Shown here piece after piece: positions 2,826-8,898 of a stretch of 64,000 nucleotides of DNA. The notes under the pieces are model-generated. The model saw nothing but the letters and a program-made list of their open reading frames with translations. It made no database searches and was not told the DNA's origin. Position 1 is the stretch's first letter, and every line of letters starts with the position of its first letter. The DNA comes from a virus (Duplodnaviria; Heunggongvirae; Uroviricota; Caudoviricetes). The stretch lies in IMG/VR virus record IMGVR_UViG_3300019376_000001. One strand, given 5' to 3'. The translations under genes were made by a program, and so were the position numbers.

Positions 2826-3221
2826 TTACCAATCTTCGTTTTGCAAATCTTCAACTCGACATCTCTCTTCATAAATTGCCTCTTGCATAATGGTTTGTGC
2901 CCAAGGGGTTAAAGCTGGACGGCTATTAACCCTTGTGCGAATTATATCAGAAGGATATCTATTATACAAGAAGTATCTTTCCATTCTGCCATCGGAATAG
3001 AAAATCAATCTTTCTTTCCAAAGAAGAGGAGTTGTACCTTCCATATCTTCTGCCATAACAGCGATATTGTCTACTGGCTTAATAATTTCTTGAGTGAAAG
3101 AATCAATCTTTCCACCATTAGCAAGCCATTCTTTTGTGATAATAGTAAAATTTTCATCAGCATTACCAATGCCATAGGCATCGTCAACAAAAATTTTATC
3201 TAAATTCTGCCATTCGCTCAT
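2826..3221 (-). CDS. Hypothetical acidic protein, last gene of the YcaO/rSAM operon
   Basis: 131-aa ORF whose start overlaps the 3' end of rSAM-2; GGAGG RBS. Confidence 0.75.
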   Translation of the reverse strand: MSEWQNLDKIFVDDAYGIGNADENFTIITKEWLANGGKIDSFTQEIIKPVDNIAVMAEDMEGTTPLLWKERLIFYSDGRMERYFLYNRYPSDIIRTRVNSRPALTPWAQTIMQEAIYEERCRVEDLQNEDW

Positions 3222-4647
3222 GACGCTCCTCCTCCATTACATTTTCATATAAACGAATAAGATTCTGCGCATTTGGATAAAATACATGGTAAGGAGAAAT
3301 GTTTTCTTTTAACCAATCCAAAAATCCTAAATCATGGTAACGTTTAATCAAATGCTTAATCTTACTCTTTAAGAAGTTGCAAACCGTAGGGTCTAAATGA
3401 TATGGGTCATTAAATTTTTCCATTTGTTGACCAGGGCATCCACCCATACAATATCTATTATAGAAACAAGAGTCGCAACCTAAAGTTCCCACATGGTTAT
3501 TTACCATTAGATTTCTAATAGCCTGATGAGGATTATTAGATTTAATACCTGTAATTGCCCCATTTTCAACAGTAAACCAACCATATAGATTTTTATTATA
3601 AGCAGTTCTATGGCAAGGGCAAATTGCTAAATCACCTAAACGAACTGTTAAAGTATTTTGTAACGTACATCCAAGAAATTCATCAGTTTCTGCTAAATGA
3701 TAAGGCGTATATGCACTCATTTCTTCGTCTTCGATAGCTAACAAATTCTTATCATAATAAGTTTGGTTAATACCAAAACCGAAAATACAAGCTTTAATTG
3801 GGTCATTATCATTACGCTCTAAAAGACCATCAATTAAAATATCCTCAAAATCTAAGAACGCTTGAATTTTCTCTGGAGTCCAGTCTCCATTTCTTACTTC
3901 AAGCATCATAACTTCTCCAAGAGTCAAGCCATATTTCTTTAGCATTTCTTTCCACCACTTATAATTCTCTGGCCACATTTCAATAGAGGCTGCCGCAATC
4001 ATCGGATGGAAGCCAAATCCATTGTGCTTAGAAAATGAAAACGCCATATCATAAAAGTCATCATCATGAGTAATTTTCGCATTGACATTAGGGCGAATAT
4101 CATTATCTACATACTTTCCATCAATAGAGATAGAGAAAATAAGTGGAACACCAATAGCTCTAAACTTGTCAATATATCCTTGAATAATTGCAGCTCTCTT
4201 ACGGTCTTTAAGAAAACTGCAGTTAGAAGGAATCATGAACTGGCGCACTTGCAATCCAGCTAAAAGATAATCAAAAGTAATATCTAAGATATCAGTTCCA
4301 AATTTACTATGCCAGATTTCGCCAGTATAAAACTCAATCTGAGGAATACAATAATTATTTGCAATAACCCAGTCATAAAAAATTTTAAGGTTTTCTTTGA
4401 TTTGCTCTGGGTTTAAAAATTCCTTTGGATAAAGGTCAGGATATTTAACCAAATAACAATACTCACACTTTTGGTTACACTGAGAAGTAATAAATAACTC
4501 CACATGCCCACGAGGTACATCCATCGCACTATTATTTGGTCTCCAAGTAGAGAAGAATCGTTTATCTAATACAACTTGCAATAATTTATCTTGTTCTTGC
4601 TGGAATAATTCCTTGTCGTCATGAATATTTACAATCACATTATCCAT
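3196..4647 (-). CDS. Radical SAM enzyme with SPASM domain (rSAM-2)
   Basis: CNQKCEYC (CxxxCxxC) plus a full SPASM Cys set: GCTLQ...ICPCHR...CDSCFYNRYCMGGCPG...VC. Confidence 0.93.
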   Translation of the reverse strand: MDNVIVNIHDDKELFQQEQDKLLQVVLDKRFFSTWRPNNSAMDVPRGHVELFITSQCNQKCEYCYLVKYPDLYPKEFLNPEQIKENLKIFYDWVIANNYCIPQIEFYTGEIWHSKFGTDILDITFDYLLAGLQVRQFMIPSNCSFLKDRKRAAIIQGYIDKFRAIGVPLIFSISIDGKYVDNDIRPNVNAKITHDDDFYDMAFSFSKHNGFGFHPMIAAASIEMWPENYKWWKEMLKKYGLTLGEVMMLEVRNGDWTPEKIQAFLDFEDILIDGLLERNDNDPIKACIFGFGINQTYYDKNLLAIEDEEMSAYTPYHLAETDEFLGCTLQNTLTVRLGDLAICPCHRTAYNKNLYGWFTVENGAITGIKSNNPHQAIRNLMVNNHVGTLGCDSCFYNRYCMGGCPGQQMEKFNDPYHLDPTVCNFLKSKIKHLIKRYHDLGFLDWLKENISPYHVFYPNAQNLIRLYENVMEEERHERMAEFR

Positions 4648-6016
4648 TCGATCTTACTCTCCTTTCTCCTTCTTCAATATAAGCTTTCGCTCCGTTTAAT
4701 AATAACTTAAACAAACCAACAGGTGTCAAGCTATGAGAACCTGTTACATTATAATTATCCTTGATACAATAAGAAGAATGACCTGCCATAAAATGCGCAG
4801 CACGCAACGCTTCATCTTCATTCAAGTATTTTCTTTCAATCTCATCTGCAAGAGCGAGAGTACGAATCAAAGCGGTCGTGTTAACCATTCGCGCAGTTGA
4901 CCATGGATGGTTATAATAACCCATAAATCTCTCATGCTCTTTATAACCTTCTGCATCCAACACATATACAGGACCATCTTCATTTACCCACTGGTTAAAG
5001 TTAATAGTACCATCTTCAACACGTCCAGAAGATTGTGCAAACTTCTTATAGTCTTCATATAATGAAGTAAATCCTTCATGGCAAGTAGATACCAGATTAT
5101 CTGGCAATAAACAAACCATAATAGACCCACTGCCGCACAAAGTAGAACAGTGTTCATATGTTGCATTTAAAGGCATTGGTTCGCCAAAATAAGGCATGAT
5201 ACTTTCATAGTATCTAAAGTAATGGTTTCTATAATTCTCAACTTCAATTTCATTGCAAAGACGACAGAACTCAGCAAAGATTTCGCCATCTTTCTTAGTG
5301 ACTGGCGCAGGTACGGCAGTGTTAGGTACTGTACAAGACATCAATACATTTGGCAGATTTAACTCATTGATTCTCAAATAAAAATTCTCAAAAAATTGGA
5401 AATACTCAATAATCTTTTGCTTATCGCAAAGTTCTCTTACTGAATAAGTATCCAAAGTCTGCTTGAATACGATTTCTAAAACAACATTATTTGGAAGTCT
5501 TTCAGGAATCATATCCATTAACTTATTGAAATTTTCAATACATCTCTTGGTTACGCCCTTACCTCTATTTGGGTCATTGATATACTCAGGACCGTCCATA
5601 GAAAGCTGTAAAGTGAATCTAAAAGTTCTTTCTGGGTACTTGGCAAACTGGTCAGTTAAACCAAATACTTTATTTGTCCACTCTGGATATGAGAAGTTTG
5701 TAGAAGAGAAGAACTGGTCGAAATATGGATAATATTCAATAACTTGAGTAATCAAATTATAAATTCTTTCCATATGCAAAAATGGCTCTCCACCCCAAGT
5801 TTCAATCTTACGAAGCTGGTCAATATTTGGAAACCACTCTTTCATTTGGTTAAAATAGTAATCGCCTTCAAAACTCTCTGCTAACTTTTCATCAATCTTA
5901 GCTAACACAGGATTCTTATCGATGTTACAATATCTACATTTTAGATTGCAGGTGCCGCAGGTGTAAAACACCGCGACACTGCGCTCTTTATTCATACAAT
6001 TTAATCCGCATTTCAT
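4640..6016 (-). CDS. Radical SAM enzyme with truncated SPASM/Twitch-like domain (rSAM-1)
   Basis: CNLKCRYC, WGGEP motif, LCGSG...STCH and a later YCIKD; lacks the CxxCxxxxxCxxxC second-cluster motif. Confidence 0.92.
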   Translation of the reverse strand: MKCGLNCMNKERSVAVFYTCGTCNLKCRYCNIDKNPVLAKIDEKLAESFEGDYYFNQMKEWFPNIDQLRKIETWGGEPFLHMERIYNLITQVIEYYPYFDQFFSSTNFSYPEWTNKVFGLTDQFAKYPERTFRFTLQLSMDGPEYINDPNRGKGVTKRCIENFNKLMDMIPERLPNNVVLEIVFKQTLDTYSVRELCDKQKIIEYFQFFENFYLRINELNLPNVLMSCTVPNTAVPAPVTKKDGEIFAEFCRLCNEIEVENYRNHYFRYYESIMPYFGEPMPLNATYEHCSTLCGSGSIMVCLLPDNLVSTCHEGFTSLYEDYKKFAQSSGRVEDGTINFNQWVNEDGPVYVLDAEGYKEHERFMGYYNHPWSTARMVNTTALIRTLALADEIERKYLNEDEALRAAHFMAGHSSYCIKDNYNVTGSHSLTPVGLFKLLLNGAKAYIEEGERRVRSNG

Positions 6017-8846: not shown

Positions 8847-8869
8847 AAAACTCCTTCCTTTTTAATTAT

Positions 8870-8898
8870 ATTATAACATAAATTTTATGTTAAGTCAA
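8870..8898 (-). promoter_or_regulatory. Promoter of the YcaO-repeat protein-rSAM operon
   Basis: TTGACT-N17-(TGT)TATAAT about 25 nt upstream of the YcaO ATG; GGAG RBS. Confidence 0.8.

Follow-up and report, generated by a model that had tools for sequence, protein, structure and literature searches.

Radical S-adenosylmethionine (rSAM) and YcaO chemistry is known from small antibiotic peptides and a few cellular proteins. In Escherichia coli, YcaO assists the rSAM methylthiotransferase RimO, whose target is S12. The nearest architectural analogue of the system considered here is HXS (HxsA/B/C/D), a system shown to block phage DNA entry and made up of a repeat effector built on triplets that contain His, of two rSAMs and of a small protein able to bind one of them (Li et al. 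2026, PMC13128918). Here, we analyze an operon (positions 2826-8898) within a 64,000-nucleotide (nt) stretch of the Caudoviricetes record IMGVR_UViG_3300019376_000001, the whole of which we refer to as the window. The operon encodes a YcaO (P0001), a 334-amino-acid (aa) repeat protein (P0002), two rSAMs (rSAM1, P0003; rSAM2, P0004) and a 131-aa protein (P0005). The phage module to which these genes belong is real, conserved and undescribed. We give about even chances to the fuller view that the locus is a member of a large, previously undescribed phage module, composed of a repeat protein, two rSAMs and usually a small partner, whose product is stapled, made late and associated with the virion tail. 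The narrower proposal is tentative and falls below even: the repeat protein would serve the virion as a tail fibre or as a needle for receptor binding, its arms stapled by the two rSAMs and, in some phages, tailored by YcaO.

An operon conserved as a phage module

The window is the minus strand of an IMG/VR virus record of 191,974 bp judged to be 98% complete, and the terminase-like and tape-measure genes within it identify the genome as that of a phage. DNA of this phage is present in metagenomes of animal faeces from a single year, and the source sample may be among several of these; no RNA run is listed among the sequencing runs with this DNA. All genes and signals given by position in the window lie on its minus strand, where the order is terminator, near-consensus promoter, YcaO, repeat protein, rSAM1, rSAM2 and the 131-aa gene, with gaps of 4-15 nt or overlaps of 8 and 26 nt between the open reading frames (ORFs). 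An intrinsic-terminator-like hairpin with a 14-bp stem and a T-rich tail (8974-9005) ends the upstream 106-aa gene and insulates the operon. The putative sigma-70-type promoter, which has an extended TG (TTGACT-17-TGnTATAAT, 8870-8898, 11/12 matches), is correctly placed about 24 nt upstream of the YcaO start and is the top-scoring of 36 promoter-like sites in the region, although it is a consensus match only and the total of such sites is no more than chance (36 observed vs. 35 by chance).

Much of this layout had been put forward in a sequence-only reading of the same DNA, which described a dedicated promoter insulated by a terminator, five near-abutting genes in a virion-encoding phage, a Twitch-like and a SPASM rSAM, and the lack of an E1-like partner, TfuA or exporter. 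These points hold up: the promoter is the best of the 36 sites and the hairpin lies at 9005-8974, all five ORFs are present as described, both rSAM families have invariant Cys motifs, and TfuA and ThiF/E1-like genes are absent from the whole 98%-complete genome, while the operon shows neither a signal peptide nor an exporter or dedicated leader protease. Alternative codes for the window (TGA as Trp, TAG as Gln) were rejected, the ORFs lengthening only as spurious read-through would and the operon being clean in translation table 11.

Our search for relatives revealed that the order repeat protein, rSAM1, rSAM2 is fixed, with the genes abutting, in approximately 32 loci, about 23 of them viral and nine from metagenome-assembled genomes (MAGs) of Bacillota or from an isolate. 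These relatives were only recovered with alignments, as single-sequence scans of IMG/VR returned no match. Among GenBank phages, near-DNA and protein searches with the locus, the YcaO, the N-terminal domain of P0002 (N-domain) and rSAM2 found no relative, and the sole match was a bacterial ycaO inside an E. coli prophage record. The repeat protein had been named as the only plausible substrate, a proposal that would be weakened if homologous enzyme clusters usually lacked it; because the repeat protein directly precedes the orthologous rSAM pair in about 32 loci, this objection does not apply. Neither did we find a close match to a characterised bacterial cluster, which could have pointed to a different substrate, nor any published description of the system in the literature on YcaO with phages and rSAM, on CXXX repeats or on recoding with rSAM.

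The module is also diverse. Ahead of more distant rSAM pairs lie one or two shorter proteins of like design, with a helical leader ending in Cys and a D/S/Y/N/G-rich tail, and some phages carry, in addition, a second paralogous module whose tails are S/N/Y/R-rich. Phages with two modules of different tail chemistries include L005/L029 (IMGVR_UViG_3300028591_000087), L003 and L057, the L029 substrate being 559 aa long. An isolate, Clostridiales Family XIII bacterium PM5-7, carries locus L058 (86330-107667 of a 428,749-bp contig), which encodes the repeat protein, two rSAMs, three genes resembling that of the Cys protein P0006 described below, and a 689-aa protein that joins rSAM-like and glycosyltransferase-like regions. 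The position of this module beside terminase and portal genes in an isolate genome suggests that the L058 element is a prophage.

Behind rSAM2 lies P0005 (131 aa, 2826-3221), which overlaps it by 26 nt and belongs to no known family. Homologues of P0005 stand behind rSAM2 in at least 14 loci and, judged by this synteny, it is a conserved fourth component of the module. By analogy with HxsD it may be an rSAM partner; a complex prediction of rSAM2 with the N-domain and P0005 scored 0.00 and gives no verdict.

The repeat protein

P0002 (334 aa, 7036-6032) begins with an N-domain (aa 1-107, 6716-7036) that AlphaFold2 (AF2) models as a three-helix bundle with a predicted local distance difference test score (pLDDT) above 90 and that ends in Cys105-Arg-Asn107. 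Ten nonamers of the type S-N-[GS]-x-[HN]-[SG]-[NQ]-T-[CN] follow as arm 1 (aa 109-198, 6443-6712), then a central patch of 36 aa, a putative distal tip where most aromatic and basic residues are found (aa 199-234, 6335-6442), and then nine nonamers of the same type as arm 2 (aa 235-316, 6089-6334). The nonamer blocks are also visible in the DNA as 27-nt arrays. The C-terminal segment (6032-6088, stop codon included) has the family motif T-V-I-D-I-x-N and a strand at 323-327.

An N-domain profile matched 439 clusters (50% identity representatives) at E ≤ 1e−3, and the domain occupies residues 1-110 in all but one of the 150 matches listed. C105 and N107 are invariant across the family, the junction reading Cys-Arg/Lys-Asn. 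The tails behind it are hypervariable in length and sequence, always rich in N/S/G/T and variable in C/H/Y; they can be rich in His and Cys, yet both residues are nearly absent in some family members. A conserved N-domain with a hypervariable tail, encoded by a gene that abuts two rSAMs of the type found with peptides made on ribosomes and modified post-translationally (RiPPs) in about 32 loci, is the design of a RiPP substrate.

In the AF2 model, built from a 66-sequence alignment, strand 107-111 pairs with the C-terminal strand 323-327 (pLDDT ~85). Further, the hydrophobic, aromatic and basic patch is centred at 0.53 ± 0.11 of tail length in 42 family members and lies at 0.35-0.65 of the tail in 35 of these 42 proteins, compared with 32% under a rotation null, a comparison whose p-value is inflated because the sequences are related. 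The modelled strand pairing and the central position of the patch therefore suggest a closed, two-arm (hairpin-like) design with a distal tip. The classical multi-core precursor pictured in the sequence-only reading does not survive these observations, in that its leader would be a folded 105-residue domain and the architecture is predicted to be closed.

The radical-SAM enzymes

rSAM1 (458 aa, 4640-6016) has CX3CX2C at C23/C27/C30 and three C-terminal cysteines (C294, C312 and C417) in a Twitch-like arrangement. rSAM2 (483 aa, 3196-4647), which overlaps rSAM1 by 8 nt, has CX3CX2C at C57/C61/C64 and SPASM cysteines. The CX3CX2C motif is kept in 97% of 77 rSAM1 sequences and is invariant in the rSAM2 family. 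Because PF04055 scores below its gathering threshold for both proteins (19.9 and 21 vs. 29.5), their membership in the rSAM superfamily rests on this motif and on many weak matches to rSAM families. In 29 rSAM2 sequences, C327, G338, C343/C345, C391, C394, C400, C404 and C423 are invariant or nearly so, which makes up the complete 7-Cys SPASM pattern (CX9-15GX4C ... CX2CX5CX3C ... C) with two predicted auxiliary 4Fe-4S clusters; TIGR04085 (SPASM) scores 25.0, just under its cut-off of 27. The best match of rSAM1 is NF033640 (Twitch-domain) at 55.3 bits vs. 170, and its three invariant C-terminal cysteines would be compatible with one auxiliary cluster.

Both rSAMs weakly match maturases that modify peptides or proteins (PapB, QhpD, CteB, GggB, YhhB, DynA and HxsB), none of them near the equivalog cut-off. 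For rSAM2 and its orthologues the PapB match reaches 1e−15 over the full length, and QhpD and CteB (SPASM) are matched as well. The RiPP recognition element (RRE) that had been proposed as a check on the rSAMs finds no room in them, as neither has an RRE-sized N-terminal extension.

YcaO, an accessory of the module

P0001 (601 aa, 7041-8846) is an E. coli-type YcaO whose domain scores above the curated cut-offs for PF02624 (106.9 vs. 25.7 bits) and TIGR00702 (106.8 vs. 75.65), placing it in the YcaO superfamily. E79, E82, R83, E201, E204, R288 and E292 (the ExxER, SExxE and ERxxTE blocks) are invariant in 25 phage YcaOs, and the three ATP/Mg-binding motif blocks align to the same blocks of E. 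coli YcaO. From these motifs, the phage YcaO is predicted to be ATP-competent. Over residues 12-296, P0001 and E. coli YcaO share 30% identity. The best match of P0001 is NF040716 (E. coli-type, S12 methylthiotransferase accessory factor), where it scores 117.4 bits vs. an equivalog cut-off of 700 and only residues 12-300 align.

P0001 does not qualify as an azoline-forming cyclodehydratase of the thiazole/oxazole-modified microcin (TOMM) or cyanobactin kind, given a TIGR03604 score of 34.9 bits vs. 219 and the lack of a ThiF-family gene in the 98%-complete genome, and there is no proline motif at its C-terminus, which reads ...YFSVKEE. Nor does it fall into the TfuA/McrA type of thioamidation, with no TfuA in the genome and a TIGR03266 score of 42.4 bits vs. 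365. Thioamidation by P0001 that is independent of TfuA is possible.

The module was present within 10 kb in 12 of the 16 loci seeded with the phage YcaO clade, and a YcaO was present within 10 kb in none of the 18 new loci seeded with rSAM2. On this co-occurrence, YcaO is an accessory found in a minority of modules. The sequence-only reading had treated YcaO and the dual rSAMs as one system; the repeat protein and the rSAM pair stand as its core and the YcaO loses its place at the heart. In five loci (the window, L002, L005, L006 and L017) the YcaO stop is nevertheless only 4-20 nt from the start of the co-oriented repeat-protein gene.

A proposed route to a stapled protein

Given these components, it is possible to outline how the module would work. 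The N-domain may dock the enzymes in the manner of a leader. rSAM1, with one 3-Cys auxiliary cluster, and rSAM2, with a SPASM domain and two auxiliary clusters, would then install repeated intramolecular cross-links along the arms. Wherever Cys is available these could be thioethers, and in Cys-poor relatives C-C or C-O bonds at His, Tyr, Trp or Asn; the invariant junction Cys and the conserved C-terminal Asp, close to each other in the AF2 register, may also be linked. A co-transcribed YcaO might activate backbone amides in Ser/Thr/Cys-rich arms, or might assist an rSAM as E. coli YcaO does with RimO. The product would be a stapled hairpin- or needle-like protein, made late and carried on the virion tail, with its hypervariable arms and tip facing the host. 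Both the action of YcaO on the repeat protein and the nature of the modifications are our inferences.

Virion protein or released effector

Where the module lies in other genomes bears directly on this proposal. In four loci (L028, L032, L035 and L036) the tape-measure gene and then one to four other tail genes precede it, and in L037 it directly follows, and overlaps the end of, a 1655-aa tail-fibre gene. In other loci it adjoins a virion lysin-like protein (L027), a virion structural protein (L030), or a portal or terminase (L039 and L058). Judged from gene order, the module of the smaller phages occupies the usual place of tail-tip or receptor-binding genes.

Many relatives use TAG as Gln. 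In the recoded locus L003, each gene of the module contains in-frame TAG codons (1-11 per gene), whereas most genes downstream, the three largest among them, are free of them. A passage in PMC10879173, citing Borges et al. 2022, states that recoded codons are over-represented in structural and lysis genes. Together with the absence of a signal peptide, an exporter and a conserved protease, the synteny with tail and head genes and the TAG recoding speak for a protein that is made late and associated with the virion. Of the two outcomes offered in the sequence-only reading, a multi-core RiPP or the tailoring of a structural protein, the second is better supported by the tail synteny and TAG recoding. 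As regards L003 itself (positions 11993-21776 of a 196-kb phage with TAG as Gln), in-frame TAG is largely gone after the YcaO gene, and the products of the TAG-poor block that follows include a protein with an SLH domain, one with DUF2828 and one of 828 aa that has a major-vault-protein shoulder domain.

Several observations weigh on the other side. In the window, approximately 35 kb or more separate the operon from the structural genes seen there; it neighbours a tRNA island and is preceded by a sigma-70-like promoter, a setting that would suit an early or accessory gene. As many of the loci belong to phages that are related to one another, the locus counts overstate independence. AF2 leaves the P0002 tail unmodelled (pLDDT < 50), and the N-domain has no recognised structural relative, as fold searches gave generic helical bundles only (PDB Z ≤ 6.7; best E-values of 0.036 in BFVD and 0.35 in AFDB clusters); a virion-anchoring role is therefore not shown. 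The mirror-symmetric Cys pattern of P0002 is not statistically distinctive, as the pair sum of 431 accounts for four Cys pairs and the sum of 413 likewise, and the finding that the modal sum lies within ±8 of the predicted centre in nine of 16 homologues is suggestive only. No modification has been observed, and the chemistry of the module is wholly inferred. Finally, five genomes from the rSAM2-seeded loci that are at least 94% complete have the module and no YcaO at all, and three complete genomes have a phage-type YcaO without a repeat protein or rSAM2 orthologue, so the target of YcaO here is not proven.

Among the alternatives, the one that best withstands the data is that P0002 is a giant multi-core RiPP or protein effector that works outside the virion, with the N-domain as a true leader and the modified tail, cleaved or whole, either released at lysis or active in the cell as an antibacterial, a signal, a metal binder or an agent of host takeover. 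The conserved N-terminal and hypervariable C-terminal design beside RiPP-type rSAM/SPASM enzymes is what such an effector would show, and so is an operon with its own sigma-70-like promoter away from the structural genes; an M28-like peptidase also lies 2 kb upstream and, in L030, between the substrate and rSAM1. However, this peptidase is kept in only five loci, and neither an exporter nor a conserved protease accompanies the module, which is found repeatedly inside tail or head gene blocks. What would be the leader is a folded domain of 105 aa, and in the AF2 model the tail is closed by a conserved C-terminal strand pairing back to its base, which argues for an intact protein. The tails rich in His and Cys would suit metal binding, but neither residue is conserved across the family, which speaks against an obligatory role of this kind. 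We consider an effector outside the virion unlikely, and a cleaved, diffusible RiPP less likely than a stapled protein of the virion tail.

Less probable again is that the YcaO and the rSAM module are functionally unrelated neighbours that share a transcription unit by chance, the YcaO acting on some other target such as a protein of the host or the phage, in parallel to E. coli YcaO with RimO and S12. The three YcaO-only and five module-only genomes are as this would predict, and in L008 and L010-L013 the YcaO lies 3.7 kb from the module and abuts a P0006-like gene. Against it stand the same-strand spacing of 4-20 nt to the repeat protein in the five loci named above and the retention of the module within 10 kb in 12 of 16 YcaO loci despite rearrangements and a YcaO identity of only 30%; moreover, the YcaO-only genomes still carry other rSAM genes close by. 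An exclusion or defence system like HXS, with an rSAM-matured repeat effector that blocks competing phages (superinfection exclusion), is the least probable of the three: the four-part architecture is the same as that of HxsA/B/C/D, there are weak HxsB and HxsC matches, and the window operon has an accessory location and its own promoter, but those matches are far under the cut-offs (31 vs. 370 and 15 vs. 268 bits), P0002 has neither a signal peptide nor a peptidoglycan-binding domain, the likely hosts are Gram-positive Clostridia with no periplasm, and the module sits in tail modules and in the TAG-recoded gene set.

Genes around the operon

Just outside the operon, P0006 (316 aa, 1815-2765) has three invariant cysteines (C197, C201 and C227). 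In 19 loci the module is flanked by P0006-like proteins, in many cases arranged as tandem pairs, and by this synteny P0006 belongs to its neighbourhood. A single-sequence AF2 model reached a mean pLDDT of 46 and is not usable. We considered whether P0006 is a peptidase U32 or UbiU-UbiV protein and could not confirm it. P0006 itself has no PF01136 match. Three of 10 relatives match PF01136 weakly (best E-value = 5.7e−4), 66 homologues carry no precomputed Pfam domain, and hhalign gave a probability below 1% against E. coli UbiU and UbiV, with a template that is thin at two sequences. ESM Atlas neighbours of P0006 are named collagenase-like and PF01136 occurs in 16% of their members. P0006 itself has only the three invariant cysteines, where a conserved cluster site would have four. 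Ahead of the P0006 gene is a second promoter-like site, TTGATT-17-TGnTATAAT (2796-2824); the motif occurs in three copies (2824-2796, 1808-1780 and 1620-1592) and may represent a phage-specific promoter class. Further downstream, a cREC_REC (cyclic-phosphate processing receiver) protein (1050-1403) lies among genes for tRNA-Asn GTT and tRNA-Gly TCC (125-200 and 1649-1721).

Upstream of the operon, the M28/M20-like metallopeptidase (10929-11984) matches PHROG peptidase families with E-values down to 8e−51, and the similar peptidase of L030 (7826-8761) has a signal-like N-terminus. Two paralogues of 470 and 533 aa (9514-10926 and 15235-16836) belong to phrog_18912, of unknown function, and related loci have DUF2828/DUF7788 (TROVE-like) proteins at similar positions. 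A 474-aa ORF (13252-14676) matches Na+/sulfate symporter and citrate transporter families (E ~1e−15), an unusual phage cargo that lies at a step in GC content, and adjoining it is a 258-aa ORF (12048-12824) with no Pfam match at E ≤ 0.01. Between 14000 and 44000 the GC content of the window is 0.43-0.46 vs. ~0.35, the AT skew is strongly negative at 28-42 kb, and the few long ORFs overlap on both strands, with no clear remedy from reading TAG, TGA or TAA as sense.

Significance

The module brings rSAM and YcaO chemistry to a large phage-specific system that acts on a protein-sized, hypervariable substrate, with substrate clusters in the hundreds and maturase families just as large. Were the repeat protein a virion fibre, phages would rely on anaerobic enzymatic cross-linking to recognise their hosts, which would matter for cultivating and engineering gut phages, and a new class of ultra-stable repeat scaffolds would be added. 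As a tail fibre or needle stapled in this way, it would be the first case of RiPP-type radical chemistry maturing a structural protein of a phage, and its hypervariable arms and tip would set the host range of uncultured phages of gut Clostridia. A released effector, on the other hand, would rank with the largest known RiPP-like products and would be phage-borne. In each case the locus gives access to two rSAM families that are uncharacterised and have a clear substrate, to an isolate-borne relative (L058) as a test system, and to a tractable partner for E. coli-type YcaO.

Comparison with known systems

For the YcaO, the best solved match is E. coli YcaO (PDB 4Q84), which is similar in length (586 aa vs. 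601 aa for P0001) and has the ATP/Mg motifs in common with it. Neither of the two has an E1-like or TfuA partner, and both go with a protein-modifying rSAM enzyme. Unlike the E. coli protein, P0001 has C-terminal 300 residues that are unrelated by BLAST, and the rSAMs beside P0001 are SPASM/Twitch maturases rather than methylthiotransferases.

The nearest enzymes to rSAM2, all of them distant, are PapB, which acts on repeated C-X3-D cores, QhpD, which acts on the QhpC subunit, and CteB. Ranthipeptide, sactipeptide and QhpD-type systems resemble the phage module in that their substrates have regularly spaced Cys in short repeats, or, for QhpD, in that a protein subunit is modified. Unlike PapB, QhpD and CteB, however, the phage enzymes score far below the family cut-offs and their two rSAMs are always paired, and as many family tails are almost without Cys, thioether formation cannot be the universal reaction.

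Long CXXX-type repeats occur in some Cys-rich relatives (L017, P0192 and P0198) and recall the CXXX-repeat rSAM target system, whereas P0002 has nonamers. In the ESM Atlas, PF27846, the Pfam family of that system, is found in 23-52% of the members of mostly viral clusters close to P0002. No protein in the genome matches TIGR04114 (CXXX target) at E ≤ 1, and TIGR04115 (CXXX maturase) reaches 27.6 bits vs. 350, and no A4 member gave a match, which sets the locus apart from the CXXX system.

For the product, the comparison with the receptor-binding needle tip of phage T4 gp37 is an analogy only, drawn from the two equal arms, the regularly spaced His and the aromatic/basic tip of P0002. The gp37 chain reportedly runs out to the distal head and returns. 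In this long tail fibre protein, iron is coordinated by the His of HxH motifs (PMC11705849). P0002 differs in having no sequence similarity or detected fold similarity to gp37 and a single His every nine residues in place of HxH pairs, and gp37 needs chaperones, not rSAM enzymes.

HXS shares most with the phage module: a protein-sized substrate of short polar repeats with His, two different rSAMs and a small protein of no other known family. Its models nevertheless score far below their cut-offs here (HxsB, TIGR03978, 31.4 bits vs. 370; HxsC, TIGR03977, 15.2 vs. 267.9). P0002 itself has no HxsA match, and HxsA4 was matched by one of 66 P0002 relatives (E-value = 2.5e−5). Unlike HxsA, P0002 has a different N-domain, lacks a signal peptide and peptidoglycan-binding domain, and has 19 nonamers as opposed to five HxS triplets. 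The phage module also differs from HXS in being phage-encoded, often within tail modules, in its optional YcaO and Cys-protein accessories, and in the envelope of its hosts.

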